This document shows, one piece after another, positions 12,493 to 43,115 of a stretch of DNA of 64,000 bases; positions within the stretch are counted from its first letter, which is position 1; each line of letters begins with the position of its first letter. A model generated the notes under the pieces. The model saw only the letters and a program-made list of their open reading frames with translations. It made no database searches and was not told where the DNA came from. Origin of the DNA: Escherichia phage RudolfBernhard_Bas96; the sequence record PQ850623.1; one strand, written 5' to 3'. The translations under genes were made by a program, and so were the position numbers.

Positions 12493-13713
12493 ATGACTAC
12501 GGAAGCTGCAACCACAGCTTCCGACATTCTCGCAATGTCGGATGATGAGATTCTGAATATGGAAGCCCCAGCAATTATCGCTGAGGAAGATACTTCCACT
12601 CAGAACAACCCAGAAACCAACGGCGTACAGACTCCTGATGAAGAAGTTGACACCCCTGCTGTTGAAGACCTACCAACCGAAGAAACCTCCCCTGAAGCCG
12701 AACCAGATGAAGAAGATTCAGCAAATACTTTAACTTCTGATAAAGTTGATGATAAAGTTGTTGACACAGAAGTTGATAGTAACGGTGAGCCGATTACTAA
12801 AGCTGAACCTTCTACTACTGAACCAGGCCAGGAACAGGAAGAAGAAGGCAAACAGTCTGAAGGTCTGCCTGCTGACTTCAACTATAAGGAAGGTTACGAA
12901 AAGTTGATGGCTCCTTTTAAAGCTAACGGCAAAGTGATTACTCCCCGTTCACCGGAGGAGGCCATTAGCCTGATGCAGATGGGTGCTAACTATACTCGTA
13001 AGATGCAAGAACTAAAGCCTTACCGTAAGGTAATGCTGATGTTACAGAACAACGGTTTAATGGATGAGGATAAACTTTCTTTCCTTATTGACCTGGATAA
13101 AAAGAATCCAGAAGCCATTAAGAAGTTGCTCAAAGACTCTGGTACAGATCCTCTGGACTTTAACCCAGATGAGGAAATTAACTACCAGGGTGGCAATCAC
13201 CGTGTTACCGACACCGAAGCAGATTTTGCAACCGAAATTGACGACTTAAAGTCTACTCAAGAAGGACAAGCTACATTAGGTGTTATCGGCTCGACATGGG
13301 ATGCTGCCAGTAAAGATGCTCTTTACCAGAATCGTGGCCTACTCCAGACTATTCACGAACAACGTGAGAATGGTATTTATGACACCATTGCAAACGAAGT
13401 GAACCGTCTTCAGATGTTAGGCCAGATTCCGGTAGGTACTCCGTTCATTCAGGCTTATAACCACGTCGGTAACCTCCTTGCACAACAAGGGGCATTTAAC
13501 CGAGTGGCTAAGCCAGAATCGGTACAAGCAGTCAAGCCAGTGGTTCAGCCGGTAGTGCGTGTAGCACAACCTAAGCAGACTCTGGCTAACAGTGAGCAAG
13601 CTAAAGCAGCTTCCCTTAATCGGGCTGCTACACGTAAAGCAACACCTATTGTAAACCCACTCGCTATGAGTGATGAAGATTTCGCTAAACTCCCAGTACC
13701 GGGTAGTCTTTAA
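12493..13713 (+). CDS. Scaffolding-like protein with highly acidic Pro/Glu/Thr-rich N-terminal region
   Basis: 406 aa directly upstream of the major capsid gene; acidic low-complexity N-terminus; GGAGA RBS. Confidence 0.4.
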   Translation: MTTEAATTASDILAMSDDEILNMEAPAIIAEEDTSTQNNPETNGVQTPDEEVDTPAVEDLPTEETSPEAEPDEEDSANTLTSDKVDDKVVDTEVDSNGEPITKAEPSTTEPGQEQEEEGKQSEGLPADFNYKEGYEKLMAPFKANGKVITPRSPEEAISLMQMGANYTRKMQELKPYRKVMLMLQNNGLMDEDKLSFLIDLDKKNPEAIKKLLKDSGTDPLDFNPDEEINYQGGNHRVTDTEADFATEIDDLKSTQEGQATLGVIGSTWDAASKDALYQNRGLLQTIHEQRENGIYDTIANEVNRLQMLGQIPVGTPFIQAYNHVGNLLAQQGAFNRVAKPESVQAVKPVVQPVVRVAQPKQTLANSEQAKAASLNRAATRKATPIVNPLAMSDEDFAKLPVPGSL

Positions 13714-13729
13714 ACAGGAATAAGATGAT

Positions 13730-14932
13730 ATGTTAAATTATAACGCCCCAATTGACGGTCAGAAATCTAGCATTGATGGTGCTGGTTCCGACCAGATGAA
13801 TACCTATTACTGGCTGAAGAAGGCTATTATTCAGTCTCGTAAAGACCAGTACTTCATGCCTCTGGCTAACACCATTAACATGCCGAAGAACTACGGTAAA
13901 ACTGTTAAGGTGTATGAGTACGTTCCACTGCTTGACGATAAGAACATTAACGACCAGGGTATTGATGCTAATGGCGCTACCATCGTTAATGGTAACCTGT
14001 ACGGTTCTTCCAGAGACGTTGGTAACATCACTTCTAAACTGCCTCTGCTGACAGAGAACGGTGGTCGTGTTAACCGTGTGGGCTTTACTCGTCTGTCTCG
14101 TGAAGGTTCCATCCATAAGTTCGGTTTCTTCTACGAATTTACTCAAGAGTCCTTGGACTTTGATTCTGATGATCAACTGAAAGAACACCTGTCTCGTGAA
14201 CTGATGAACGGTGCTGTACAGTTGACTGAAGCTGTTCTCCAGAAAGACCTGTTGGCTGCTGCTGGTACTGTATTGTATGCAGGTGCTGCTACCTCCGATG
14301 CCACCATCACTGGTGAAGGTTCTACCCCGTCCGTAGTTTCTTATAAGAACCTGATGCGTCTTGACCAGATTCTTACTGAGAACCGTACTCCGACTCAGAC
14401 TACTATCATCACTGGTTCTAAACTTACCGATACCAAAGTACTTGGTGGTACTCGTGTAATGTACGTTGGTTCTGAACTGGTTCCAGAACTGAAAGCGATG
14501 AAAGACCTGTTCGGTAACAAAGCATTCATCGAGGTTCAGCACTATGCTGATGCCGGTACTCTGATGAATGGTGAGATTGGTTGTATCGACAAGTTCCGTA
14601 TTATTCAGGTTCCTGAGATGCTGCATTGGGCAGGTGCTGGTGCTCAGGTTACTACTAACCCGGGTTATCGCTCTTCTATGGTTAGTGGGCAAGAACACTA
14701 CGACGTATTCCCGATGCTGGTAGTTGGTGATGACTCCTTCTCTACCATTGGCTTCCAGACTGATGGTAAGTCTGTTAAGTTCTCCATCATGACTAAGATG
14801 CCTGGTCGAGAAACTGCTGACCGTAATGACCCGTATGGTGAGACTGGCTTTAGTTCCATCAAGTGGTACTACGGTATTCTGGTTAAACGTCCAGAACGTC
14901 TGGCTCTGATTAAGACTGTTGCTCCTCTGTAA
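13730..14932 (+). CDS. Major capsid protein (N4 gp56-like)
   Basis: 400 aa; position after scaffold; followed by a strong hairpin terminator, typical of the highly expressed capsid gene. Confidence 0.7.
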
Positions 14933-16555: not shown

Positions 16556-19210
16556 ATGGGCTTATTCAGTGGGAAGACCAAAGTATACGTAGCATCCTCT
16601 GTCTATAACATGGCAGGGGATATACACAAACGTCCAAACTATATGAAGACTGTAGTCATCGGTAAGATTGTTGCTGATACAGGATTCACTATGGCAGACA
16701 CTATCTCTGATAGTTATCTGAATGGACCGGGTATTCGTATGCGATTGTTCTCCAGCTGGAGTAAGAATCACTATGATTCAGAAGTTGGTATGGCTGGTTC
16801 TTCATTAGGTGTACTGGCTAAGATTGACCCTACTGTTATAGAGGGTCAAATTACTCCACCTGCTGGTGAATCAGTCTATGTTCAGGCAGCAGAGATTGGC
16901 TTTGCTGACTTTGAGCAATGGTGTGACCAATATCTTTATGAGAATGCCCCAAGTCGAATCATGGAACGATTCGACGTAGACATTGATGAAGATACCAATG
17001 AAATTACTATGACCTCCCTGGATGGGGGTTCTACCATTACATTCACACCTACTAACTTTGAACCAGGTGCTTTGTATCTCTATGCTGATTACACATTCTA
17101 TAAGTCTCCATCTACCAATCCACCGGTAGTAGGACCGACTACTGTCTATGATAGTGAAGGCGACTTACCGTCTACTTTGTTATGGACCACTATCTCAAGC
17201 GATACTACAGCTAATACAACCAATCTTACTAAGACTATACAGACCCATTCTGTTTACTCTGATGGTAGACCAGATGAAGACAATACTGTCACTGAACCAA
17301 GCGTAGATAACTGGAACTCTTACGTTAAGGTTTATCGTAGAGGGTTTACTGAGAAACCCGATGATGTGACTGTAGTTGTATCTGACAGGGTAATGACTCA
17401 TAAAAAGTTTGGTGAGGTTCAGTCCAGTACTACTGTAACTACTAATGTAGTTGATATAGGTGGTGGTGTTACTCGGACTGACACAATCACCACAACTACA
17501 GAGACACTGGTTCGTAAGTATTCATCCCAGACTACCCGTACTGATACAGAGATGACTGCTGTTGGTACACCTAAGATGCTTATCTATAAGCAGAACTCAG
17601 GCAACGTTGCACTCGATTCACTGTTTGAAACTGAGGCTACTGATAACCGATTCTATCCATTCATTCCAATCAGGAATGATAAACAATGGGTAGAGAATGA
17701 TCCAATCTACCCCCACTGTAAGAAGGCACTCTATAAAGCTACTGGTGGTAAGCTTGATAAAGTAGTAACCGAGCTTAAGAAGAACGACGACATAGGTGAT
17801 ATCCAGTACATCTATGGCACATTCGGTGTATCTCTTAATACTCCAGAAGATACTGCTAAGGAATACATCTACCGTTTCTTTCAGATGGCTACTGAAGCAT
17901 TCCCACCTGACCCAACCTACCCTACATTGGAAGCAGTGATTGCAGGTTATCAGGCAGCAAATGATGCAGTCGATGCATACGTAGAATGGTGGAACAGGCA
18001 GGAAGGTCAGATTGTTGGAACACCTCCTCCCTTGCCAGAATATCCTGTCATACCTAAGCGAGAGTTTAGGGTACATAGTAATAAGCAGTACAAGTATGAC
18101 ATGACTATTGGTTGGAACTATGTGTCTGAAACTGCTCATTCTGGTGAAGCATGGTCTGGTGCTAAGCAAGGACAACTTCGAGCCAGATATGCAGGGGATA
18201 TAACTCTTACTCGTAAGAACATACGTACTGCTAGTAACTCTGGTTCGACTAAGAAGCTGGAAGTTACCACTACGTTTTATTCCATGCAGGAGTATGAGTT
18301 GCTTTGGCAGGACGGTAACAACACCTACCGTAAACTTAGAGTACTGGGTCTGAACCATAACAATAGGGTATATAAAAATAAGTCAGTGAGTATTGATGTT
18401 GCTGAAGCAATGGGCGATGCAGAAGAGAGTGGGTTCATTATCCCACTACACACTAACATCTACCGTTCAATGTCACTGACTCGTAGTACCCAACTGTCTA
18501 CTGCCTGTTCCTACTTAGTTATGAACTCGTATAAGAAGGTTAAACAGAAGTGGTATCAAACCTCTGCCTTTAAGATTGTAGTTGTTGTGGTTGCTGTCGT
18601 TGTATCCGTATTCACTATGGGTACTGGTGGTGCAGGTATTCTTGGGGCATATGGTGCAGTTGGTGCATCGCTAGGTTTTGTTGGATTGGCTGCTGTAATA
18701 GTGGGTGCTGTAGCAAACGCCATTGCTGCAATGATTCTGATATCTATTATTACTAAAGTATCCACTTCACTGTTTGGTGATAAGCTAGGTTTTATCATTG
18801 CTGCTGTTGCTTCAATGGTAGCCATGAACGTTGGTACTGCTATGTCTACTGGTACATCCTTATCTACCTTAGCTAGTGAAATGATGAATGCTCAGAACAT
18901 CATGCAACTTACCAGTTCAGTAGGTAACGGCATTAGCCAGTATATTAATGCATCTACGGCTGCTACTATTCAGAAAGCAGAGAGTGTAATGCAGCAGTAC
19001 AATACTGATATGATGGCAATCAATAAGCAGTATGAAGAAATGTTTGGTACTGCTGGGCAGGGTGTAATTGACCCCATGCAATTCGTGTCAATGGAGTCGA
19101 TGGATTCTTTCCTCTCACGTACTCTCATGACTGGTTCGGATATAGCTGACATGTCTTTAAACATGGTTGGCAGCTACTCTGATATGACTCTTAATACTGA
19201 CCTTGTTTAA
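16556..19210 (+). CDS. Large internal virion/ejection protein with strongly hydrophobic C-terminal membrane segments
   Basis: 884 aa; ~100-aa stretch VVVVVAVVVSVFTMGTGGAGILGAYGAVGASLGFVGLAAVIVGAVANAIAAMILISII... (~nt 18570-18850) predicts several TM helices. Confidence 0.45.
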   Translation: MGLFSGKTKVYVASSVYNMAGDIHKRPNYMKTVVIGKIVADTGFTMADTISDSYLNGPGIRMRLFSSWSKNHYDSEVGMAGSSLGVLAKIDPTVIEGQITPPAGESVYVQAAEIGFADFEQWCDQYLYENAPSRIMERFDVDIDEDTNEITMTSLDGGSTITFTPTNFEPGALYLYADYTFYKSPSTNPPVVGPTTVYDSEGDLPSTLLWTTISSDTTANTTNLTKTIQTHSVYSDGRPDEDNTVTEPSVDNWNSYVKVYRRGFTEKPDDVTVVVSDRVMTHKKFGEVQSSTTVTTNVVDIGGGVTRTDTITTTTETLVRKYSSQTTRTDTEMTAVGTPKMLIYKQNSGNVALDSLFETEATDNRFYPFIPIRNDKQWVENDPIYPHCKKALYKATGGKLDKVVTELKKNDDIGDIQYIYGTFGVSLNTPEDTAKEYIYRFFQMATEAFPPDPTYPTLEAVIAGYQAANDAVDAYVEWWNRQEGQIVGTPPPLPEYPVIPKREFRVHSNKQYKYDMTIGWNYVSETAHSGEAWSGAKQGQLRARYAGDITLTRKNIRTASNSGSTKKLEVTTTFYSMQEYELLWQDGNNTYRKLRVLGLNHNNRVYKNKSVSIDVAEAMGDAEESGFIIPLHTNIYRSMSLTRSTQLSTACSYLVMNSYKKVKQKWYQTSAFKIVVVVVAVVVSVFTMGTGGAGILGAYGAVGASLGFVGLAAVIVGAVANAIAAMILISIITKVSTSLFGDKLGFIIAAVASMVAMNVGTAMSTGTSLSTLASEMMNAQNIMQLTSSVGNGISQYINASTAATIQKAESVMQQYNTDMMAINKQYEEMFGTAGQGVIDPMQFVSMESMDSFLSRTLMTGSDIADMSLNMVGSYSDMTLNTDLV

Positions 19211-21677: not shown

Positions 21678-21738
21678 AACTGGCTTACTGTAGAGTAAGT
21701 TACCTATATACGATATAAGTTTGAACAGGAAACATGCT

Positions 21739-32874: not shown

Positions 32875-33402
32875 CTATAGAATTATCCAGTCATCTGCTA
32901 ATACATCCGATTGGGATGGAACCCAAGGCATAAACTGGTCATCAGCAGTTTTGATGCCTAACCATGGGCGAGGCTTCAGTTCATCAGCAAATCTTGGACG
33001 TTCTAGACTACTGCTGTTCCATTCTTCAGCAGCAACGTACTCAATGTACATTCCCTTACCGTTCCAGCCTTTACGGGCTAGTTTGAAGCCTGCCTTAAGA
33101 ATCTCTATGGCATGACCAAACGTGCAGCCTTTGTCCACATCGTGGTATGCAGCTTCAAATGCAGCCCTCGGTGACCAGCTAATATAACCACGGAATTGCT
33201 CATGGTTAGGTTTAGAATCCGGGTATTCTACTAAGTAACCTACTTCTAATGGATCTTCATTAGCAGGCACATCCCATCCACGAAGTTTGCAATATGTTTC
33301 CTTGTTCATCCGGAATCCATTTACACACTTGGTTCCAATGTAGTTGGTGAAGTGAACTTTAATTTCTTCTGACGTAACTACCTCAAATGATAAAGCCCTC
33401 AC
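32875..33402 (-). CDS. DUF2829-like protein (Tad2-type candidate anti-Thoeris sponge) with N-terminal extension; start uncertain (track GTG 33402 or ATG 33308)
   Basis: C-terminal region FGHAIEILKAGFKLARKGWNGKGMYI...PWVPSQSDVLADDWII resembles the DUF2829 pattern as I remember it; family assignment is from memory only. Confidence 0.4.
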   Translation of the reverse strand: MRALSFEVVTSEEIKVHFTNYIGTKCVNGFRMNKETYCKLRGWDVPANEDPLEVGYLVEYPDSKPNHEQFRGYISWSPRAAFEAAYHDVDKGCTFGHAIEILKAGFKLARKGWNGKGMYIEYVAAEEWNSSSLERPRFADELKPRPWLGIKTADDQFMPWVPSQSDVLADDWIIL

Positions 33403-33416
33403 TAGGAGGGCTTATT
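33392..33416 (-). terminator. Hairpin (AGCCCTC / GAGGGCT) with flanking T-rich sequence, possible terminator after the upstream minus-strand gene
   Basis: 7-bp GC-rich stem at 33394-33412; overlaps the track start of the DUF2829-like ORF. Confidence 0.35.
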
Positions 33417-33493
33417 TTGTTTTGGCTTCGTGAGCCTTACCACATGTCGGGTAGTTCAGTACCTTTCGGTAAAAACTACCTTACACTTGTTTA

Positions 33494-33874
33494 TTAAATG
33501 GTGCAACCACCACCATCACAGGTATTGTTTTCTGCAAAGGAAGCCAGAGCCTTAGCAGTCTCCTCTTTCTCATGCAGTGCCTGACGTAGCAGGTAACCCT
33601 CTATTTCCCAAATCTTATCGAATGCATTTTCATATGCATACTGACGGCCTTTCTGCTCATCATAGATGGCCGGGTCAACACAGGCAGATTCGCCTGTAAC
33701 TTTGAAGCCGTTTTCCAGGATGATAACACAGTAGGTTGTCAGGCCCAGGTTAGCCAAATCGTCTGCCGGAAGTGCAGAAGGGTTAACGAAGGCAGACTTT
33801 ACTGCATCAGCACCGTTGAAATAGTAGACGCTCTTAATCTTAGCTTCGATTGATTCTTTACTTACTGTTGCCAT
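33494..33874 (-). CDS. Hypothetical protein with Cys/Gly-rich C-terminus
   Basis: 126-aa ORF; GAGG RBS 8 nt upstream of ATG; no confident family assignment. Confidence 0.4.
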   Translation of the reverse strand: MATVSKESIEAKIKSVYYFNGADAVKSAFVNPSALPADDLANLGLTTYCVIILENGFKVTGESACVDPAIYDEQKGRQYAYENAFDKIWEIEGYLLRQALHEKEETAKALASFAENNTCDGGGCTI

Positions 33875-34043
33875 TATTAGCCTCGTAGAGTGGTTTGAGT
33901 TTGTATTTAAACATGACTGCGTTGTTATAGGCTACGCTACCTGCAAACACCAAAGACTTACGTCCTCGGTTATCCGTTACCTCATAGGCATACGGGGTTA
34001 AAATTAGGTCAATCATATAAATCGTCCAATGAGTAGTTCTCAA

Positions 34044-34082
34044 ATAAAAAAGTCCCCCAGAGTGACGGCTCTGAGGGACTTA
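34044..34082 (-). terminator. Strong rho-independent terminator on the minus strand closing the tRNA-like island
   Basis: Minus-strand hairpin AGTCCCTCAGAG-CCGTCA-CTCTGGGGGACT followed by TTTTTTATTT. Confidence 0.6.
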
Positions 34083-34326
34083 GTACTATTTACCCATAGC
34101 TGGGAGGCTTGTATGAACTTTATGAGTACCAGGTTCAGGTACGCTTAACTGGTGTGCTACTTGGATTGATAGTCCACTCATATCGCTCAGGCTAGGATTT
34201 AAGGAGTTCCTATTCTCCAGCGAAATTCCCGTCGAGGGGAATAACAATACATTAGCAGCCACTGGACTGTCTTACCAGTGTTGTCTTTAGAGTGCTATGC
34301 AATCAGGACTATGTTACTGCTGAATG

Positions 34327-34413
34327 GGTGTCCACTACTGGATTTGAACCAGTGACCCCAGACACCTTGTTCTCTCGAAGCTTTCCTGTGCTCTACCACT
34401 GAGCTAAGTGGAC
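34327..34413 (-). tRNA. tRNA-like gene; canonical acceptor, D and T arms but non-canonical expanded anticodon region; anticodon not assigned
   Basis: Minus-strand read: acceptor GTCCACT / AGTGGAC (7 bp), D-arm GCTC-AGTGGTA-GAGC, T-arm ACTGG-TTCAAAT-CCAGT, discriminator A; the 36 nt between D and T arms contain no 5-7-5 anticodon hairpin. Confidence 0.45.
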
Positions 34414-34912
34414 ATAATAGAATGAGCTGGGGCAGGATACCTACCCCATCCAACCAAGTTACTCTGTATCTGAAGAACTATATTAAGTAGTTCATTTTAC
34501 AGCAATAAGTAATTAGCTACTGCTTAACCAGGATGATTAGACGTGCTCATATTGGGTGAGTCATGCCAGGCTCTAACTGGCTCCTTCTTCGCAATCCTTA
34601 CATACCCCTACATAATTATTGCGTTAAGCTTTTTTGTTTAAGTTTAAGTGAAGGCGTTCTTGCTGACTCATAATTGGGTGGGCGTTTGACGAATGACTAG
34701 TTCGTTACTACCCGTTTGCCATAAGTACCTGGCGACTATGGTTTGAGATGGGAGTCCGAGTCCTGTACAGCCTTACCGTCTCCACATTGGCAGCGTATCT
34801 AGAATAGCACTTCCGGGTACGGATTTAACTGTTACATCTCAAATATGGTAGGGGCGTCCAGAGGTTTCATCTGGTACTTACGCCGTCGTATTTACGACTT
34901 ACCCCCATTGTT

Positions 34913-34990
34913 TGGTTGCAGGTGGAGGAGTTGAACCTCACTTCACATACAGATTGGGAAACCTGTAGCATAACCGTATGCTCACCCACA
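34913..34990 (-). tRNA. tRNA-like gene with encoded CCA; anticodon loop appears to be 8 nt (TTTCCCAA); possibly Gly-type; needs software confirmation
   Basis: Acceptor TGTGGGT / ACCTGCA (two G-U pairs), D-arm GCAT-ACGGTT-ATGC, T-arm TGAGG-TTCAACT-CCTCC, discriminator A + CCA; anticodon stem ACAGG / TCTGT leaves an 8-nt loop. Confidence 0.45.
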
Positions 34991-35033
34991 ATAATTCTTC
35001 CAATTCAGAGTAGCACTGTTGCAGTCGTCACTG

Positions 35034-35108
35034 CCCATAGGTGAGGACTCGAACCTCACAATACCGTATGGCTAACGTCGCTGAACCTTTTCGCGTTCTA
35101 TGCAGTGC
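35034..35108 (-). tRNA. tRNA-like element (T-arm TGAGG-TTCGAGT-CCTCA); full cloverleaf not resolved by hand
   Basis: Canonical T-arm signature (plus-strand GGACTCGAACC); acceptor pairing only partial (CATAG / CTATG). Confidence 0.3.
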
Positions 35109-35118
35109 TACTTTGAAT

Positions 35119-35200
35119 TGGTTACCAGTGAAGGATTCGAACCTCCGGTTGGAGTCTATAGCTTACCGCAGCAGCCCTCCAATCTAGCGGTGTCACACTT
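35119..35200 (-). tRNA. tRNA-like element with T-arm GGAGG-TTCGAAT-CCTTC and encoded CCA; 5' half not resolved
   Basis: Plus-strand GGATTCGAACC at 35133-35143; minus-strand 3' tail ...ACTGGTA-A-CCA; no matching 5' acceptor strand found by hand. Confidence 0.3.
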
Positions 35201-35244
35201 AGTCCAAACTTGAACATGCCAAGCCATCTCGTGCAACTGGTAAT

Positions 35245-35320
35245 TGGTTCCGGCGTCTGGACTCGAACCAGAACACTCATGCCGGGCACGACACTAGTAC
35301 CTACACCGGAATAGTTGCCA
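35245..35320 (-). tRNA. tRNA-like element with T-arm TCTGG-TTCGAGT-CCAGA, acceptor TCCGGTG / CGCCGGA and encoded CCA; D/anticodon region unusually short
   Basis: 7-bp acceptor pairing (one G-U) plus discriminator A + CCA; only ~31 nt between acceptor and T-stem, too short for canonical D and anticodon arms. Confidence 0.3.
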
Positions 35321-35371
35321 GGGATTCCACCTGGCTCTATCTGTTTTTATAGTCACTCAGATATTGTCTGG

Positions 35372-35450
35372 ACTTTGACCATCTGGGGATTCGAACCCTC
35401 ATCTCGGTGGCCAACCGTGCATTTGCCTCATGCTACTCTGGTCATAGTTG
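35372..35450 (-). tRNA. tRNA-like element (T-arm GGG-TTCGAAT-CCC); D-arm-like GCAT-GAGGCAA-ATGC present; boundaries uncertain
   Basis: Plus-strand GGGGATTCGAACCC at 35385-35398; D-arm-like hairpin on the minus-strand read; acceptor pairing incomplete. Confidence 0.3.
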
Positions 35451-36128
35451 GCCCCCGTTTCTAATACATGGACGGGGGAACTCCACGGTCGTTTGATAAT
35501 CAGGACGACTCACTCCTGACTGAGGTTACGCTGTTAGGCGACCATCAGATACGCTTCTTCGTTTGCATTTATGTTATTGGTTCGTTTCTAAAAAACCGCA
35601 TAATCGCTACGAAAACTATCGGAGAGTGTACTAACTCTGGGCCACGCTTTTGTGGACATCGGCCTACCTTCCACAGCTAATCAGCTAATACACTCACCGA
35701 TAGCCCGTAATAGGGGGGAGGGGACGAATCCTCCCTTTATACCCTATATTGCATGTAAGACCTAACAATTCGATGTTGTAGACGGATAGGCTTATGCTTA
35801 CCGGCATTAAACTCCCGCCCCCTTAGTGGGCTGGGTTAATTAGTATACTCAACATTGAGCAGTTAGTTTGATAAGGGATCTGAAGCCTTATCCCAAAGAT
35901 ACCAACCTTTGGGATATAGCCTAAGATTCAGAAATGGCCCCTATAGGAGAGGCCATTGATTAACCCGAATGTTGCTTTACATTTTCTGTGATAACCGGTT
36001 CTTAAAATAGTCTGTCTGACGGATGGGGGGCCACCCCTAGCGTCAGTGCCATACGGCAAAGATTAAGTTAAGAAAGGTTATGATAGGAGTTCCTATCTCA
36101 AAGGATTCTGACAGAACCCTTCACGATA

Positions 36129-36395
36129 TTAACTACTCTTTTTCAATGCTTCAACTTCGCCATCTTTATACCAAGCATATGGTATTAAGATTTTGCAGCC
36201 TTCTGAATCAATGTGGAATGCTTTGTTTACTTCAGCAGGTTCTCCACCCATGAAAGAACTAACCTTTCCATTGAGCCAGTGAATAGTAAATTTGTTCATA
36301 TTAACCCCGGTTGAACCAATGGACTGGGGAGAGTATTCCAATCCACTGGTTCGGTTGTTGTTATTCTGGCGGCTTGTCACCACCGTGTTTACCAC
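36129..36395 (-). CDS. Hypothetical protein
   Basis: 88-aa ORF; first minus-strand gene downstream of the RNA island. Confidence 0.35.
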   Translation of the reverse strand: MVNTVVTSRQNNNNRTSGLEYSPQSIGSTGVNMNKFTIHWLNGKVSSFMGGEPAEVNKAFHIDSEGCKILIPYAWYKDGEVEALKKSS

Positions 36396-36530
36396 TGCAT
36401 TTCCACAGGATAATGACAGTGATGATAAAAGCTATGTATGGAGCCGACACGTCTATAATCCTGACCAGTAGTAGCATCAGGACTATAAACACTACCACAC
36501 CTAGCAGCAGCTTCTGAGCCACCTACCAGA

Positions 36531-36980
36531 TTAACTACGTTTTAGGCCAGCGAACAGTGAAGGCTTCGCAGCAGGTTTCTCTGCTGGTTCTTCAGCCTTA
36601 ACTTCTTCCTGCACAACTTCTTCTTGTGCTTCTGGTTCAGCTACTGCTTCTTCAGGTTCCGGCGTAGAACTCTCGTTCGGTCCACCAGTAGAGGTCTGGA
36701 TTTCTTCTTCCTTTGCCTCTTCTTCTGCTTCATCCTCAACAACCGGTTCTGGTTCTACCGGACGGTGTTTGGCTTCTTGTGGGTTCTTACGAGGACGGCG
36801 AGTCTTCTTCTCTACCACGGGGGGGGTGTCATCACTATGACCGACCTCTTCATTGATACCAATGGTGGCAGTACCGTCTGCATTCACCAGGATATTAATG
36901 TCCCCGGCAAGATTAACTTGTTCATTTACATAAGCTTCAATAGCAGCTTCTACTTCAGACTGGTTCAGAACGATTTGCAT
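36531..36980 (-). CDS. Acidic low-complexity protein (Glu/Pro/Ala-rich C-terminal two-thirds)
   Basis: 149 aa; ...PEPVVEDEAEEEAKEEEIQ...EPEEAVAEPEAQEEVVQEEVKAEEPAEKP...; strongly negative C-terminal region. Confidence 0.4.
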   Translation of the reverse strand: MQIVLNQSEVEAAIEAYVNEQVNLAGDINILVNADGTATIGINEEVGHSDDTPPVVEKKTRRPRKNPQEAKHRPVEPEPVVEDEAEEEAKEEEIQTSTGGPNESSTPEPEEAVAEPEAQEEVVQEEVKAEEPAEKPAAKPSLFAGLKRS

Positions 36981-36981
36981 A

Positions 36982-37536
36982 TTATGCCTTTATTAATTTA
37001 ATGAGATTCTGGAAAGCTGGTAGATTTACCCCAGCGTGGATTGCACCGATTGCATCAGCTAAGTGCTCATTCTTATTCAGAAGTTTACCTTTCTTATCCG
37101 TGAGCCAGTTGGCTTCAGGATAGATGGCATGAGCAGCACGAATCATCGTGTCTTTGGATGCTGTTTTATCACCGACCAGTGCAAGTTTGTTTTCAATTGG
37201 GGATACTTCAAAGATTGGACAATCCAATGCACGGAATGCACCGATTAGTCCTACGCATACACCATAGGACTTCATTCCGTTAGCAGACTGAGAGCCTACT
37301 GGTACTTCTACGAATACTGCTTTAGCAGACCGTAACCATTCCTCACAACCAAGAAACAAATCATGGGCAGCTTGTATATCTTTGGAGTTGGTTCGAACTT
37401 GTTTGTTATGGTCAACTTCAGTTTGAACCAGTTTAAGTTCGACCTGCTCGAAGACACCGGACTCAATGTCCAGCATCCCACGAGCTAATCCCCAATTGCG
37501 GAGGCTAATGTCTGCACCGACAATTGGGATTTTCAT
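36982..37536 (-). CDS. RuvC-like Holliday-junction resolvase (RNase H-fold endonuclease)
   Basis: N-terminal IVGADISLRNWGLA (catalytic Asp context) and C-terminal HLADAIGAIHAG resembling the RuvC C-terminal catalytic motif. Confidence 0.5.
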   Translation of the reverse strand: MKIPIVGADISLRNWGLARGMLDIESGVFEQVELKLVQTEVDHNKQVRTNSKDIQAAHDLFLGCEEWLRSAKAVFVEVPVGSQSANGMKSYGVCVGLIGAFRALDCPIFEVSPIENKLALVGDKTASKDTMIRAAHAIYPEANWLTDKKGKLLNKNEHLADAIGAIHAGVNLPAFQNLIKLIKA

Positions 37537-38339
37537 TAACGCTTACCGAACAGAGATTTACCACCAGCAGGAGTAGTACCTGTGCCAGCACCTGCACCAG
37601 GTTTAGGAGGCAAGCCACCTTTACCGTTACCACCAGTAGAACCCTTGGTCTTATCACGGGTTTTACCTTTGTTCTTTTCCAGCCATGCTGCATAGAATAC
37701 AGCCAGTTCTGGAGTCAGTTCTTTCTCAGCCTTCTCTGCTTCCTGAGCCTCGACGACTGTGACCAGCAGTTCCGGGTGAAACACTTTCTGAATCTCGTTT
37801 ACTTCTCGAGTTTCACCGGAGTCAACGTAACCGTTGTCACCTTTAACCTGCTTAGCTTCCAGAACCTTTTCCAGAGCGAAGGTAACAGTCTGACCAACCA
37901 GATCAACTGGAACCATGACAGACTTGTTGGTTTCTGCTTTCAGATCGAAGTCATAGACTTTAACAATCTTCTCTTCGAAGTCTGCATCTGGCAGTTCACA
38001 ACCAGTAGCCATAAGCATCATGTCATTAATGACAGTGTAACCAGGCAGGAAGTATTCTTTACCATTCTTCTCGTAAGTCGGCTTATTGCCTTTAGCATTA
38101 CCAGAAGTAAAGTACACCTGAGCACGGAACTCACCAGCATCATTGCCGTCAGAACCTTTCAGGTTTTCGATGATTAACTGCATCCAGTCTGCACCAGAGT
38201 CAGCTTTACCTACGTAAGCTACTTTTACAGTACCGGTGTAGATATCGGATTCTTTAGCACCGAAGCCACCCCCACCAAGAGTGTCTTTTGCAGCTTCAAC
38301 GTTTTTGGTCTTTTCTTTCAAGTTACCGAACAGTGACAT
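37536..38339 (-). CDS. Single-stranded DNA-binding protein, N4 gp45-like (by size and synteny)
   Basis: 267 aa (N4 SSB is ~265 aa as I recall), Gly/Lys-rich flexible C-terminus, located between resolvase and primase region. Confidence 0.45.
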   Translation of the reverse strand: MSLFGNLKEKTKNVEAAKDTLGGGGFGAKESDIYTGTVKVAYVGKADSGADWMQLIIENLKGSDGNDAGEFRAQVYFTSGNAKGNKPTYEKNGKEYFLPGYTVINDMMLMATGCELPDADFEEKIVKVYDFDLKAETNKSVMVPVDLVGQTVTFALEKVLEAKQVKGDNGYVDSGETREVNEIQKVFHPELLVTVVEAQEAEKAEKELTPELAVFYAAWLEKNKGKTRDKTKGSTGGNGKGGLPPKPGAGAGTGTTPAGGKSLFGKR

Positions 38340-38379: not shown

Positions 38380-38823
38380 TTAAGCGTAGTATTCAGCCAG
38401 ATGGTCTAAGAGTTTTTGGGCATCATTGTCGATATAAGTCTGAGATTTATCGAACATACCCATCGGTGAACGAAGTCGTTTACCAACAGACTTCTTGGTT
38501 GGACGAGTCTGGAATACGTGCTTATAGCCTAAGTCACGTTCTTCTTCCGTAATATCAAGCATCTTGTTGCCATACTTTTCCAGTTCTTTGATGTCTACAC
38601 GTTCTGCGTAAACCACTGTAGAGAAGTAAGCCTCAAGGCCATTGTTCTTCAGTGAACCCTTAACTGGGATGAATGTTTTCATCACACCAGCAGCTTCGTC
38701 GAGTTCATCTTTGGCATGGGCAGTAATAATTACTGGCTTACCAAACTTAACGACTTTCTGTTGCAGCAGTATTTTAAAGAACTGCGCAAAGTCTCCCCAC
38801 GATACGTTCAAGAGTGTACGCAA
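38380..38823 (-). CDS. Hypothetical protein
   Basis: 147-aa ORF. Confidence 0.35.
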   Translation of the reverse strand: MRTLLNVSWGDFAQFFKILLQQKVVKFGKPVIITAHAKDELDEAAGVMKTFIPVKGSLKNNGLEAYFSTVVYAERVDIKELEKYGNKMLDITEEERDLGYKHVFQTRPTKKSVGKRLRSPMGMFDKSQTYIDNDAQKLLDHLAEYYA

Positions 38824-38968
38824 CTACACTCCCAGCAGCATTACCTGCATCTGCATGTTTCCATGCAGTCCAGACTATATCTTCATCCTCGTTAATTACG
38901 ATAGGATGCTGACCGCTTCGAGCAGCATTAGCTTCTGCCCTACTCCATTACTGGATAGTCGTTGCACC

Positions 38969-39460
38969 TTACTTAATCTTTTGTATAGCATGGGGTAAGC
39001 CATGCTCAATGATATAGGCATTTCTCGCTTCCAGAGCTTCAACCTCGGAATCAAAATTACCTACAAAGATTCTTTCATTACCATTGCAGATTCTTGCTGA
39101 CCATTTTTTCTTAGTGGTATTTAAACCTATTCCTAAGTAGGTAGCTTTACTGGTTATTCTTTTTCTGGAATTAATGGCCTGAGTTGTTCTAGTTGCCCAT
39201 CTCAGATTTCCTGGTACATACCCCAGTGAACCATCTATTCTGTCTAAAGTAAGACCCAGCCTTTCCCTGTCTGCATAACCATCTAATGACTCTAGATAGG
39301 CAGCAAACACTTTGAAGTCAGAGAACTCTTCTGCTCTAGTTATCCCCCTAGCCCCATAGTTTTTATAACTAGCGTGCTTAGGGTTGTCACATCTCTGTTT
39401 AATGGTTAACCATGTGTAATACAGAGGATGTAATTCATTACCGAATCTTTTCTTACTCAT
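38969..39460 (-). CDS. HNH-like endonuclease with AP2-like DNA-binding domain (possibly degenerate HNH: DRID in place of DHID)
   Basis: LTLDRIDGSLGYVPGNLRWATRTTQAINSR (HNH_3-like) followed by an AP2-like segment YLGIGLNTTKKKWSARI...FVGNFDSEVEA. Confidence 0.45.
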   Translation of the reverse strand: MSKKRFGNELHPLYYTWLTIKQRCDNPKHASYKNYGARGITRAEEFSDFKVFAAYLESLDGYADRERLGLTLDRIDGSLGYVPGNLRWATRTTQAINSRKRITSKATYLGIGLNTTKKKWSARICNGNERIFVGNFDSEVEALEARNAYIIEHGLPHAIQKIK

Positions 39461-39592
39461 GTTTGTAACTCCGTTAATAAAAACCGGAGAAAGATTAAGT
39501 CTTGGCTCAGGATTGCCCTCGTCTTTACGTTAGGGGTTTCCCTGAATTCAATCAGTTATCATTAATCATTACTGACTAACGGGCCTTAGTAG

Positions 39593-39928
39593 TTAAGCCT
39601 TTTGGGTATTAGCAGATGGCAATACATATTGGGATTCCAGCATGTCCATCATAAAGGTAGCAGAGTCGATAATGATACCATCAACATCATCTGCCATTTC
39701 ACCACCAGGTGATGCAACATCAAATGCTTCCCAAATCTGGTATGGGTCTTCAATGTTGTAAGTATTGAACTTGTTACGGAAAGGCAGACGTTTACCTGCT
39801 TCAGTATTCAGATAGAGCCAGCGTTCCTGGTTCCGGATATTACGCAGTGATGCTGATTTACCACTCGCTGAGAATCCTGCGATCAGGATTAGCTGAGTGT
39901 TCATATCATTGGAGATTTCTTCGGACAT
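39593..39928 (-). CDS. Small P-loop-containing protein
   Basis: Walker A-like AGFSASGKSAS in a 111-aa ORF. Confidence 0.3.
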   Translation of the reverse strand: MSEEISNDMNTQLILIAGFSASGKSASLRNIRNQERWLYLNTEAGKRLPFRNKFNTYNIEDPYQIWEAFDVASPGGEMADDVDGIIIDSATFMMDMLESQYVLPSANTQKA

Positions 39929-39984: not shown

Positions 39985-42138
39985 TTACTTGCCAGCGAAG
40001 CGTTTAGCCACGGTGACCATTACGGTTGAATTCAATTCATCATCCGGCAATGGATTAGCCAGTTTCTTATTGAATGAGTAGACGGCTTGCTGTACTTGAG
40101 CAAAGTCCCAACCACTGTCTACTAATGCCAGTGCGTATTTAATCATTTGATTATTACGATTACCGGAGGCAATACGACCAGCGAACCAACGCTCCAGATT
40201 GTCTAACGACTGTACTTCCTTCATCTGGTTCTGGAACTGCTCGTTCTTACTGGTACGGGGAATAAAGTCACGTACATCCAACAGATTCGCATCAAGATTG
40301 TAATGATAGGAACCAGTCTCACAGGACATCCACTTCTTGGCTCGTTGGTTAGCAGACTCATCCGTTTCGAATGGTAGCCAAGCCATAACGTTATTCATGA
40401 ACTCTTTGTATTCCTCAGTGTCGAGGTGTAGCTCATAGTTCATTGGAATAATCAGACGGAAGCGGTTCTCTTCTTCAGTATGACGCTTAGTGGTATAGGT
40501 CATGAACTTATATTCCTTCATCAGTTCATGGCACGTATGCAGTGGTACTCCTCCATCACAGTCAATAACAATCATGTTAAATCCTGGGATAACGTTCTCT
40601 TCAGAACGATGCCCATTCTTCATGTGATGGTTAACCCAGTGCATACCGGGAGCTTGGGTTAATACATGTAATTGGTCAAACGGTACTCGTTCACCAACAT
40701 AGTCATAAGCAAAGCTATCACTATATGCCACTATCATCTCATTGGTGTCAGTCTCTTTCAGAGTCTCACCACGGAAGAATTCAATACCCTCATTGAAGGT
40801 CTTCTTAATAATGATGTGCTGTTTGTAACCCCATGCTGTAGCAAGAGTCATCATCTCATTACGAGCTGCATTACCACTCTTATAGAACGGTAATGACTCC
40901 AGCAAGTCAGCATGAGTCACTTCTTTACCTACGGAGGCAATGTACTTAGCCAGCTTCACATAGGCTTTCTCACGATTGAGAATACCCTGGAATGCTGCCC
41001 CGGATTCTTCTACGAGCAGGATCGCTTGTTTAAGGTGAGACATCTCAATGAATGAACTCTGGTCAACAAACGCTAGTGCACCTGCCAGCTTAAGAGCCTT
41101 AAAGTAACGGTGGGAGATTTCAGCCTTACGAATTTCTTCGTGGTCAGCCATAGCTTCTGCTTTCTTCTCACAATCAATTTTGTAAGTAATCAGAGCAATT
41201 CCCACTGCATCTTCCACAACCATCTTAAAACCAAACAGGTTTGGGTCAGCCAGACTATGGAAGTGGTTAGCCCATTTACCAAGGGACTGTACGTTATCCT
41301 GCTTAATCAGGTTACGGTAGATTTCTTCCGGGGTCAGCGTTGCATGTGCTCGCTTGTCTAAATGCCCGATGGCAAACAGACAACGACGTGCATACCCTGT
41401 ATCAAGGAAATCATAGAACTGATCTTCAGTTTGCCCACCATCCAACAGCTTACTCGGAGTACCGAACAGCAGCAGGTTAGCAGGAGTCTTACCATCCAGT
41501 TCTTCACCACGAATACTTTCAGCAGTGTTCTTGGTTAACTTCTGTTTTACTTTCCCCTGGTCATATAACTCAAGGAACAGGTTAAGCACTTCAACGTTGG
41601 CAATGAGGTTAGAACCAATCTCATCAATCTGTAAGTTAATAGCACCACAACCAGCCATAAGCAGCTTGTGACGAAGCTGTTTTACAGCAGGTGCTGTACC
41701 AGAGTCGAATGTGAATGGGAATGCCCCAGCACGTTTATACTCTGCTTCAACTTTATCGAACTCATCATTCTGGTCAGTACCTTGACGAGCAGCACGTTCG
41801 TTAGCAATCTTCCATAAACGGTCATTTGCAATGACGGGCATGGTGTCTTCCATAAAACGTTTACGGAAGCCAGTCATGAACCCGTCTTCAATAATATTTA
41901 CCGAGTGACCTTTACCGAAACCAGATGTAGCCAACGCCATAGCGTAGATGTTTACCGGCAGGTCACCACGGTCTTTAGTTACGATGGTTGCACCCATGCA
42001 GGATGCCATTTTAGCCAAGAAGTAGGCTACTTCGACACGGAAGAATCCCCGGTCGTTATTCTGGGTTTTATTGCAGAGCACATCTACGATTTCTTCAATC
42101 GCCGGATGGTGCACTACTCCGGTAAGGTCAATACTCAT
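39985..42138 (-). CDS. Primase-like replication protein (N4 gp43-like by position); possible AEP-type motif
   Basis: ~717 aa; NMIVIDCDGG resembles the primase-polymerase hhhDxD motif; start at ATG 42136-42138 forming an ATGA overlap with the upstream nuclease stop. Confidence 0.35.
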   Translation of the reverse strand: MSIDLTGVVHHPAIEEIVDVLCNKTQNNDRGFFRVEVAYFLAKMASCMGATIVTKDRGDLPVNIYAMALATSGFGKGHSVNIIEDGFMTGFRKRFMEDTMPVIANDRLWKIANERAARQGTDQNDEFDKVEAEYKRAGAFPFTFDSGTAPAVKQLRHKLLMAGCGAINLQIDEIGSNLIANVEVLNLFLELYDQGKVKQKLTKNTAESIRGEELDGKTPANLLLFGTPSKLLDGGQTEDQFYDFLDTGYARRCLFAIGHLDKRAHATLTPEEIYRNLIKQDNVQSLGKWANHFHSLADPNLFGFKMVVEDAVGIALITYKIDCEKKAEAMADHEEIRKAEISHRYFKALKLAGALAFVDQSSFIEMSHLKQAILLVEESGAAFQGILNREKAYVKLAKYIASVGKEVTHADLLESLPFYKSGNAARNEMMTLATAWGYKQHIIIKKTFNEGIEFFRGETLKETDTNEMIVAYSDSFAYDYVGERVPFDQLHVLTQAPGMHWVNHHMKNGHRSEENVIPGFNMIVIDCDGGVPLHTCHELMKEYKFMTYTTKRHTEEENRFRLIIPMNYELHLDTEEYKEFMNNVMAWLPFETDESANQRAKKWMSCETGSYHYNLDANLLDVRDFIPRTSKNEQFQNQMKEVQSLDNLERWFAGRIASGNRNNQMIKYALALVDSGWDFAQVQQAVYSFNKKLANPLPDDELNSTVMVTVAKRFAGK

Positions 42139-43115
42139 GATGGAAAATATCTCTCTCTTTGTTTGCAAATAGATGCGACAGGGCAGTAAAGACATCTTTT
42201 AACCTGTCCCTCCACGACCTTGATAGCACCCTTGCCACCTTTTTCAGCCATGAAGATACGAGCAGATGCCATATCGTCAAAGTTTTTGGTACTTCTGGCT
42301 CCAGGTACATCTACCTTAGAAGCATCAGAGAAGTATTTGAACTGTGGCTCTGTTCGCCACAACTCCTCGTCAGTACATTCCGGGATTTCCTCTTCCGGTG
42401 CATCCCAGTACTTTTCGATTAGGTGAATCTTCTCCTCTACCCAACGCTCAGTTTTCTCGACAGACAGCAACGGAATATCCTTATGCATAATGCGATTAGC
42501 AGGATAGTTCGGATTGCTATTAGCCATGTGTTTCATGAAGTCAGTGAAGATGTAGTTAATACGGATTACATCCTCAGTAATGATGTCGTTGTGAATCCAA
42601 CGGTACAAGCTGCCTTGCATCTTGTGTTCATCATCACGGGAACCAGCAACCCAGGAATAGGTTGAGGTAGACTTGAAGTCTTGTAACAGACCTTCTGTTA
42701 CGATGTCGAATTTACCACCAATAGTCCATCCCTTAACCTGCTTGGTTCCACGCTGTTCAATGTAGATTGGGATAAGGTCAGGATTAGCAGCAAAGTCTGC
42801 TTTGGTTGGGTTAATGACTACTGCATCAATTACTCGCTGAGGATAACCTAGCTTCTTCAATGCAGTCTTATGGCCTAGCTTCCAGGCTTTCTCGATAGAA
42901 TCATGTAAGCCAGTACCCATTGATGTGGAGACGAAATCCATGACATCAATTGACTGGTCACTAAAATCTACACGATGCTTCATGACGATTTGCTTAATAG
43001 GCTTAAGCAATGTAGTAGCAGACAGGTACTTAGGATTGTCTACGTAATCGTACTCATCATGTAATAGCCATACAGCCAGAGCCAGTGAGACATCATGATT
43101 GTTGGTTACCTTCAT
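42135..43115 (-). CDS. PD-(D/E)xK family nuclease with C-terminal Cys cluster (Cas4/RecB-exonuclease-like)
   Basis: GGKFDIVTEGLLQDFK core-like motif and C-terminal ...KRCLYCPVASICK Cys cluster. Confidence 0.4.
   Translation of the reverse strand: MKVTNNHDVSLALAVWLLHDEYDYVDNPKYLSATTLLKPIKQIVMKHRVDFSDQSIDVMDFVSTSMGTGLHDSIEKAWKLGHKTALKKLGYPQRVIDAVVINPTKADFAANPDLIPIYIEQRGTKQVKGWTIGGKFDIVTEGLLQDFKSTSTYSWVAGSRDDEHKMQGSLYRWIHNDIITEDVIRINYIFTDFMKHMANSNPNYPANRIMHKDIPLLSVEKTERWVEEKIHLIEKYWDAPEEEIPECTDEELWRTEPQFKYFSDASKVDVPGARSTKNFDDMASARIFMAEKGGKGAIKVVEGQVKRCLYCPVASICKQRERYFPS

Follow-up and report, generated by a model that had tools for sequence, protein, structure and literature searches.

An acidic protein encoded beside the resolvase gene of N4-like phages shares its C-terminal SLF peptide with the phage single-stranded DNA-binding protein and may act as a resolvase tether

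The 64,000-nucleotide stretch of Escherichia phage RudolfBernhard_Bas96 analysed here (sequence record PQ850623.1; hereafter the window) carries on its minus strand an open reading frame (ORF) at 36531-36980, stop codon included, whose product of 149 amino acids is the subject of this report. The region was 92-96% identical in nucleotide comparison to G7C-group coliphages such as PhAPEC7, PhAPEC5 and G7C, and judged by its sequence the phage belongs to the genus Gamaleyavirus of the N4-like Schitoviridae. The minus-strand gene order is that of N4: a gp43-like primase (39985-42195), an interrupted gp44-like Sak4-like ATPase (38380-39928; N-part 39593-39928, C-part 38380-38823), a gp45-like single-stranded DNA-binding protein (SSB) of N4 type with 267 amino acids (37536-38339), a RuvC-like Holliday-junction resolvase resembling N4 gp46 (36982-37536), the 149-amino-acid ORF and several small ORFs. 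The SSB matched PHROG 743 (E 7.9e-89) and the resolvase PHROG 159 (E 4.6e-42), in agreement with the neighbours named in a first-pass annotation of the window, whose interval for the acidic protein (36531-37536) also took in the resolvase gene. An ORF of 3605 amino acids (21721-32538) is the counterpart of the virion RNA polymerase that PhAPEC7 carries, by annotation, beside this region.

The 149-amino-acid ORF is a genuine gene, because of its junction with the resolvase gene and the AAAGG upstream, its wide presence in phages and the purifying selection acting on it. Its ATG start lies 1 nucleotide past the resolvase stop codon, and the gene is translationally coupled to that of the resolvase. 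The ORF was found by tblastn in 68 phage records, and a protein database search returned 648 relatives, which disposes of the concern that it might be a spurious frame lacking homologs. In codon comparisons the ratio of non-synonymous to synonymous substitution rates (dN/dS) was 0.08-0.38 over the N-terminal domain and an adjoining basic patch, indicating purifying selection, and 0.3-0.7 in the acidic linker that follows. The C-terminal tip showed no non-synonymous and 6-8 synonymous changes against the distant relatives L015 and L003. Constraint at the nucleotide level, such as a ribosome-binding site, was ruled out as the cause of this conservation, since synonymous sites are saturated and yet the peptide is invariant.

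The protein was identified by its sequence as the N4 gp47 ortholog of the G7C group, and it is called gp47 below. PHROG 7641, a family with no assigned function, matched residues 1-149 to its profile positions 1-151 (E 5.1e-71), and PHROG 18842, which together with 27655 and 7564 is a sister of 7641, matched with E 8e-10. The orthology follows from the protein encoded at the gp47 position of VEc25 (species Enquatrovirus N4), past gp46, which has the same N-terminal domain with the common start MQVILTQPEIEAAL..YVN, the same KHRPV motif and the identical end AKPSLFAGLKR. The two proteins differ in the sequence of the linker, and no member of the family has an assigned function. All database copies are annotated as hypothetical protein, and no publication on gp47 function was found in the literature search; a CRISPRi-ART paper and a transposon-mutagenesis preprint held no data on N4 gp47. 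The 'gp47' of a Migulavirinae preprint is a tail-fibre chaperone under another numbering scheme and was set aside.

To define the family we compared 80 loci around gp46-like genes from viral contigs, together with several GenBank phages. Wherever a Schitoviridae locus extended far enough downstream, its resolvase was followed by a protein of 99-193 amino acids built on the gp47 plan. Matches to the gp47 N-terminal domain numbered 83 among the ORFs of 85 sources, and only L038 and L046 were without one. The plan consists of a conserved N-terminal segment of about 50 amino acids (consensus MQIxLxQxEIExAIxxYI, followed by a hairpin in family alignment A2), a linker of 41-127 amino acids without conserved sequence, and a C-terminal [ST]-[LI]-F peptide. 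An exhaustive phmmer search with residues 1-75 gave 15 representatives; P0130 and P0132 were repeat or low-complexity false positives. A tblastn search with a short-tip member of the family failed to reach the roseophages.

The window gp47 is divided accordingly into four segments. The N-terminal folded domain comprises amino acids 1-47 (MQIVLNQSEVEAAIEAYV..., 36840..36980, minus strand; dN/dS 0.13-0.38) and is followed by the basic patch of amino acids 48-75 (HSDDTPPVVEKKTRRPRKNPQEAKHRPV, 36756..36839, minus strand; net charge +4, dN/dS 0.08-0.15). The disordered Glu/Pro/Ala-rich linker spans amino acids 76-137 (36570..36755, minus strand), and the C-terminal tip with its Ser-Leu-Phe (SLF) motif occupies amino acids 138-149 (AKPSLFAGLKRS, 36534..36569, minus strand). 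The whole protein contains 31 Glu, 17 Ala, 15 Val and 14 Pro, with 14 Lys plus Arg against 36 Asp plus Glu, an isoelectric point (pI) of 4.30 and a net charge of -22. The acidic, Glu/Pro/Ala-rich composition reported in the first-pass annotation was thus confirmed. Its placement of the acidity over the C-terminal two-thirds held for residues 76-137, where a net charge of -21 is concentrated, and overlooked two basic islands within that part, KKTRRPRKNPQEAKHRP (inside residues 48-75) and AKPSLFAGLKRS (net +3).

The basic patch is kept in the enterobacterial relatives and is AT-hook-like, with a GRP core, in some other lineages. The R-G-R-P core of the AT-hook is absent from the window gp47, which reads TRRPRK and has no GRP. 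A loose AT-hook-like pattern (GRP, RRPR, RGP[RK] and similar) was present in 8 of 78 linkers; in three of these the sole match was the non-canonical RRPR that marks the window's own group, and a true GRP core past the N-terminal domain was seen in two roseophage fusions and in L034.

The structure of gp47 was predicted with AlphaFold2 on an alignment of 34 sequences. The N-terminal domain was modelled as a strand, a helix (7-21) and two further strands (28-32 and 38-42) with a predicted local distance difference test (pLDDT) score of 83-90. The linker was disordered, without secondary structure, at a pLDDT of 45-53; confidence recovered in the basic patch (69-78) and at the tip (72). Searches of Pfam and NCBIfam gave only Menin and BID at E ~0.3, which is low-complexity noise, and Foldseek of the model against PDB gave a best E-value of 1.2, the top matches being small eL22-like alpha/beta units. 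No unrelated enzymatic fold, which would have spoken for another role, was found in the Pfam, NCBIfam and Foldseek searches.

A profile search of PDB sequences matched the N-terminal half of YfiA/RaiA with E 0.006-0.01 over the first 22 residues, and hhalign against an E. coli YfiA sequence that was confirmed only in part gave 86.9% probability over 55 columns. On this basis the N-terminal domain might be a truncated HPF/YfiA-like module, and gp47 a ribosome-associated factor acting on translation. Only half of the beta-alpha-beta-beta-beta-alpha fold is present, however, the helix and strands of the model being read as beta-alpha-beta-beta. YfiA was absent from the Foldseek matches in PDB and Pfam gave no match, the N-terminal domain of gp47 is acidic, and the genomic context is one of DNA metabolism. 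We give a role on the ribosome almost no credence.

Foldseek against BFVD had just two matches, one to the KP8 ortholog (E 2e-5) and a weak one to a roseophage RusA (E 0.04). Because of this weak match, fusions of gp47 to RusA were recognized. PHROG 14238 ('RusA-like resolvase') matches gp47 through its C-terminal half, and in Schitoviridae that have RusA in place of the RuvC-like enzyme, RusA and the gp47 module form one in-frame polypeptide. Such fusions were present in Dinoroseobacter phage R7L, Roseobacter phage RD-1410W1-01, Rhizobium phage RHph_I1_6, Vibrio phage phi 1 and Pseudomonas phage ZC08. Their order is RusA, then ...MRILLDQ.. or MQITINQTQIEKAI.., linker and tip, and the tips read KKSSIFDVD, KKSIFGNAAS, SKSLFG and AKSIFGN.... 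In ZC08 and RHph_I1_6 the RusA PHROGs cover approximately residues 19-134 and the gp47 PHROGs match from residue 134/135 on. In Escherichia phage Pollock, RusA and gp47 are encoded by two separate genes that lie side by side. The gp47 module thus stays beside, or joins, whichever resolvase the phage uses.

Three loci from outside the Schitoviridae that carry a gp46-like RuvC (ZY21, RHph_Y2_17_1 and CMS-2020a) lacked, within 3 kb, both a gp47-like gene and an N4-type SSB, and gp47 is therefore tied to the N4-type SSB system and not to RuvC as such. In these larger phages the proteins encoded just upstream of the RuvC-like gene end in aromatic tips (..TDFGGWA, ..YEIGGWS, ..NPNFGRF and ..NPIWGTW), which may form an analogous terminal-motif system. 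In roseophage DSS3phi2 (13428-14367 of its locus) the annotated RusA ORF includes at its end the first part of the gp47 module (...ENMRILLDQDDIH) and the remainder of the module lies in another frame, in a 154-amino-acid ORF at 13903-14367. This split is taken as a frameshift or sequencing error because close relatives have a single fused ORF.

Charge and disorder prediction, which the first-pass annotation had proposed, supported a flexible acidic linker throughout the family. The linker was net negative in 78 of 78 distinct gp47 homologs (median charge per residue -0.13, whole-protein pI 4.05-5.3); its acidity is therefore a property of the family and not chance. Acidity is kept as a property while the sequence is free, which is the signature of a charged flexible spacer and not of a shaped surface. 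The parts of gp47 that are conserved and under selection are the N-terminal domain and the C-terminal tip, not the acidic array.

These data bear on the possibility, raised in the first-pass annotation, that gp47 is a DNA mimic acting against restriction or other host defence. The strong net negative charge, the pI of 4.3 and their conservation across the family are what such a protein would show. DNA mimics of the Ocr/ArdA type, however, have a folded scaffold that presents a DNA-like acidic array, and the AlphaFold2 model of gp47 has no such scaffold: its acidic segment is disordered, 41-127 amino acids long and not conserved in sequence. The gene lies in a replication/recombination operon at every Schitoviridae locus examined, in phages of many hosts, and in some lineages is fused to a resolvase. 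No similarity to known DNA mimics was found in Pfam, NCBIfam, PDB sequences, or by Foldseek against PDB and BFVD. A DNA mimic is thus very improbable.

In the window, the SSB ends in ...AGGKSLFGKR (37539..37568, minus strand) and gp47 in ...AKPSLFAGLKRS. S262, L263 and F264 of the SSB are invariant columns in two SSB alignments, and the SSB tail has a pLDDT below 45. With other ORFs of at least 80 amino acids in the same DNA as the control, SLF occurred within the last 14 amino acids of 44 of 60 distinct gp47 tails and 45 of 52 distinct SSB tails, against 2 of 475 other ORFs. Among window ORFs of at least 100 amino acids, no other C-terminus was of the SLF type. Ser preceded the motif centre in 50 of 63 gp47 tips and 44 of 50 SSB tips (position -1), position 0 was Leu or Ile, and Phe was invariant. 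A window ORF of 884 amino acids and unassigned function on the plus strand (16556-19210, PHROG 2220) starts with MGLFSGKTK; this is superficially SLF-like and may be due to chance.

The two tips also vary together. Similarity between the gp47 and SSB tips of the same genome averaged 13.05, compared with 5.1 +/- 1.15 after shuffling, and none of 10000 shuffles gave a higher value; how many residues follow the Phe was correlated between the two tips (rho 0.75). In one clade the SSB ends in SLFGKK and gp47 in SLF[AG]xLKR(P..), while in a second both proteins end right after the motif, in TTSLFA and TTSLFN. Joint changes were seen in L042 (gp47 SLFAKPQSN, SSB SLFAKPQS), L041 (PIFGNLKK and SIFGKKA), Piffle (AGLF in both) and the roseophages (SSIFDVD and SLFDD, giving [LI]FD(V)D in both). 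The L042 peptides are encoded by AGC CTG TTC GCT AAA CCT CAG TCG in one gene and TCG CTG TTC GCC AAG CCT CAG TCG in the other. Since the codons differ, gene conversion was ruled out as the source of the identical tips, and their identity is held by selection on the peptide and not by copying of DNA. Compared as sequences, the gp47 tip is the same motif as the SSB end, and the two change in step within genomes.

A 70153-bp N4-type genome (IMGVR_UViG_641201066_000001), taken as the N4 reference, has one A fewer than VEc25 at approximately 3920-3995, in the run GAAGAAG(A)AAAAG; the VEc25 counterpart compared was L003 3061-3492. Its gp47 consequently ends in ...KKYRKKRLKNQYKPNLLCLQV, and the SLF tip is hidden in that frame. 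The +2 frame still encodes EEAKEPVQAKPSLFAGLKR and then a stop, differing from VEc25 at synonymous sites. The frameshift reflects either an error of sequencing or a mutation acquired recently in the laboratory, and the N4 reference sequence thereby conceals the SLF motif behind a single base.

Some family members have two tips. Two roseophage fusions (L088, 1525-2430; L089, 1669-2415) carry an internal GNLFGDE or SSSIFESE in addition to the terminal KKSSIFDVD, and P0134 carries KTSIFAGMK in mid-chain and KSIFSLG... at the end. Two tips per chain suggest possible bivalent docking.

The SSB of the window was modelled by AlphaFold2 with a core at about 90 and a disordered C-terminal tail (residues 233-267). 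The core matched SSBs of the oligonucleotide/oligosaccharide-binding (OB) fold weakly (E 0.003-0.1). The last 40 amino acids of the SSB were net positive in 63 of 63 cases (median +7), the opposite of the charge of the gp47 linker. The N-terminus of the SSB, MSLFGNLK (38316..38339, minus strand), is itself similar to the gp47 tip and follows a pattern conserved in related loci, M-S-x(0-2)-[LFMI]-[FL]-x-x-[LM]. Residues 1-10 reached a pLDDT of 78, compared with about 60 for residues 11-30, a hint in the model that this N-terminal arm may dock on the SSB core. Long gp47 tips resemble the SSB N-terminus; the N4 SSB starts MSNLFGNLAG and the gp47 tip of L024 reads KNLFGNLKR.

It could be asked whether the acidic segment of gp47 acts in trans, binding the basic tail or the DNA-binding groove of the SSB and modulating SSB loading and unloading by a regulatory mimicry of single-stranded DNA. 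N4-type SSBs lack the acidic C-terminal tail of E. coli SSB, T4 gp32 and T7 gp2.5. What acidic SSB tails do in general has been reviewed (PMC9917605). The opposite charges of the gp47 linker and the SSB tail, and the likeness of the gp47 tip to an SSB arm that AlphaFold2 places more confidently than its neighbours, fit such a partner. The linker sequence is unconstrained, however, and in many lineages only mildly acidic (-0.04 to -0.1 per residue); binding of the SSB by gp47 is putative, and the fusion to resolvases would be unexplained. We regard this acidic partner in trans with considerable doubt. The suggestion of the first-pass annotation that gp47 is an SSB-interaction partner is therefore upheld in part: a link to the SSB system is supported by the shared, co-varying SLF tip and the opposite linker charges, and direct binding to the SSB is putative.

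The C-terminal residues of the N4 SSB are essential for activation of host RNA polymerase, an activation that proceeds through the beta' subunit's C-terminus (PMC4496689), and SSB C-terminal tails in general are docking elements for partners (PMC9917605). The layout of gp47, a disordered linker ending in a conserved hydrophobic peptide, is that of an SSB-type tail, and binding by its tip is putative. We favour, with a probability of roughly 0.5, a reading in which gp47 is a tether associated with the resolvase and plugs into the site where the SSB tail docks. As a tethering adaptor for the resolvase, gp47 would use its acidic stretch as a flexible spacer, which might also keep the tether off DNA. 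The SLF tip would occupy the receptor used by the SSB tail, and junction resolution would thereby be brought to where the SSB works. Dimerisation, junction contact and partner contact are candidate roles for the N-terminal domain.

Several observations weigh against the tether. The covariation of the tips resides mostly in two big clades, those with long and those with short tips, so that the shuffle test overstates the number of independent events; clear independent joint changes number about five. The RusA fusions may share a single ancestral event and count as at least one, not five. The N-terminal domain is kept in the fused proteins and must do more than hold the resolvase. The frameshift in the N4 reference removes the tip, which, if the frameshift is real, can be dispensed with in the laboratory. 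A role as decoy or regulator fits the same data.

As a decoy or regulator, gp47 would contend with the SSB tail for the receptor of that tail, such as RNA polymerase beta', and would tune when or how strongly SSB-dependent late transcription runs, or tune replisome contacts, without delivering a resolvase. The gp47 tip is the same motif as that of the SSB and co-varies with it, gp47 is co-expressed from the SSB operon, and the two tips of some homologs would suit a competitor; the SSB tail is moreover the determinant of activation in N4 (PMC4496689). Competition alone leaves unexplained the tight coupling and fusion to two unrelated resolvase families, and the conserved N-terminal domain. We consider it unlikely; it is the main alternative on the same facts, and the acidic partner acting in trans comes next.

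The identity of the receptor for a gp47 tether has several candidates. Host RNA polymerase beta' is the only one with an experimental indication, and only for the SSB, because the essential role of the SSB C-terminal residues in activation was found to operate through beta' (PMC4496689). It is conceivable, though not probable, that gp47 carries the beta'-contacting peptide of the N4 SSB and serves to place on host RNA polymerase either the resolvase or a protein competing with the SSB. The SSB core, the host beta clamp and the DNA polymerase of N4 are other candidate receptors. This polymerase is specifically stimulated by the N4 SSB, and the T7 tails described below are a precedent for docking on a phage DNA polymerase.

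For the beta clamp, the SLF tips would be non-canonical clamp-binding motifs, and the SSB as well as gp47 with its resolvase would ride the sliding clamp of the host. S-L-F corresponds to the last three positions of the bacterial clamp consensus QL[SD]LF, and as in the clamp motifs of MuC/Mor and of T4 gp43, gp33 and gp55, a hydrophobic LF peptide stands at the extreme terminus past a flexible segment in several client proteins. MuC, a late-gene activator of phage Mu, has one N-terminal and one C-terminal motif (QHDLF and QPDLF), which parallels the arrangement of motifs in the SSB, and Mor works with DLF alone (PMC12867686); the tail of T4 gp43 reads EKASLDFLFG (PMC6212786). In both Mu and T4 the clamp motifs couple late transcription to replication (PMC12867686, PMC6212786). 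Assignment of the tips to the canonical clamp-binding motif was nevertheless rejected, as Q1 and L2 are missing. Neither the gp47 nor the SSB tips conserve these two residues, and K, T, P or R mostly stands in their place; in gp47 tips the two positions were K, T, P, A, S, R or V, with Q in only 1 of 63 (at position 2), and Q at these positions occurred in 2-4 of 50 SSB tips. We know of no involvement of the clamp in N4, nor, to our knowledge, does N4 replication need the host clamp. Work from 1995 reportedly obtained activation of purified RNA polymerase by the N4 SSB without a clamp. Docking on the clamp is improbable.

The principle of flexible tails sharing a docking peptide is known from SSB tips, clamp motifs and the tails of T7 proteins. 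The tail of the N4 SSB (gp45) resembles gp47 in having a disordered linker before a terminal K/T-S-L-F peptide. Its linker is basic and rich in Ala, Gly and Lys, whereas that of gp47 is acidic and gp47 has no OB-like core. According to reports from the Richardson laboratory, gp2.5 and gp4 of T7 have similar flexible C-terminal tails that end in Phe and dock at the same sites of the phage DNA polymerase. These T7 tails are said to be acidic and to end exactly at the Phe, whereas the N4-like tips range from neutral to basic, and of the two proteins only one has an acidic linker, upstream of its tip. The second tail carrier of T7 is reportedly the helicase; that of the N4-like phages is the partner of the resolvase. 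E. coli SSB, with its tip DDDIPF, also has a core, a disordered linker and a conserved hydrophobic tip that recruits partners (PMC9917605). The E. coli tip is acidic and a single tip is recognized by many partners, while the N4-like tip is basic or neutral and is carried by a second protein as well.

In the literature searched and in the annotations we did not find the N4 SSB tail peptide described as a family-wide SLF motif. Nor did we find described a second protein carrying the SLF motif at every locus examined and co-evolving with the SSB, the alternate coupling or fusion of one protein to two unrelated resolvases, or the opposite linker charges of two SLF carriers. N4 is the classic phage whose late genes are turned on by an SSB in place of a sigma factor or an activator bound to DNA. 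The tether gives a gene labelled hypothetical since publication of the N4 genome a hypothesis that is concrete and cheap to test, and suggests a possible wiring of replication, recombination and late transcription in Schitoviridae. If docking on RNA polymerase is true, recombination-dependent replication and junction resolution would be physically coupled to the late-transcription switch, and two proteins of one operon would share the SLF tip as a new, portable peptide for docking on RNA polymerase. Should the idea of an adaptor be wrong, gp47 remains a modular family that is well defined and has a short linear motif open to testing.

Other features of the operon were recorded. An HNH endonuclease ORF (38969-39460) sits between the two halves of the Sak4-like gp44 gene. 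The Rfam group I intron model matched at 38851-39086 with 48.4 bits (E 8e-11), just below its gathering score of 50, and again at 39261-39605 with 32.3 bits; in PhAPEC7 the split gp44 arrangement is annotated as an intron.

Downstream of gp47, two small conserved ORFs (36129-36522, minus strand) lie before a strong hairpin resembling an intrinsic terminator (34081..34050, minus strand), which has a 13-bp stem followed by a T-run and probably ends the leftward replication/recombination operon. One of the small ORFs, of 53 amino acids, matched PHROG 19025 and, weakly, a membrane-protein family, and the other matched PHROG 14773. The stretch 34000-36100 contained no ORF of at least 100 amino acids. 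ARAGORN called no tRNA over 33000-37000, although Rfam calls one there, a match of 85 nucleotides at 34329-34413 (minus strand, 54.4 bits). A weaker tRNA-like Rfam match was seen at 34916-34991 (minus strand), with 31.7 bits and below threshold. Relatives carry a tRNA-Ile/Xle annotation at the site corresponding to window positions 34329-34991.

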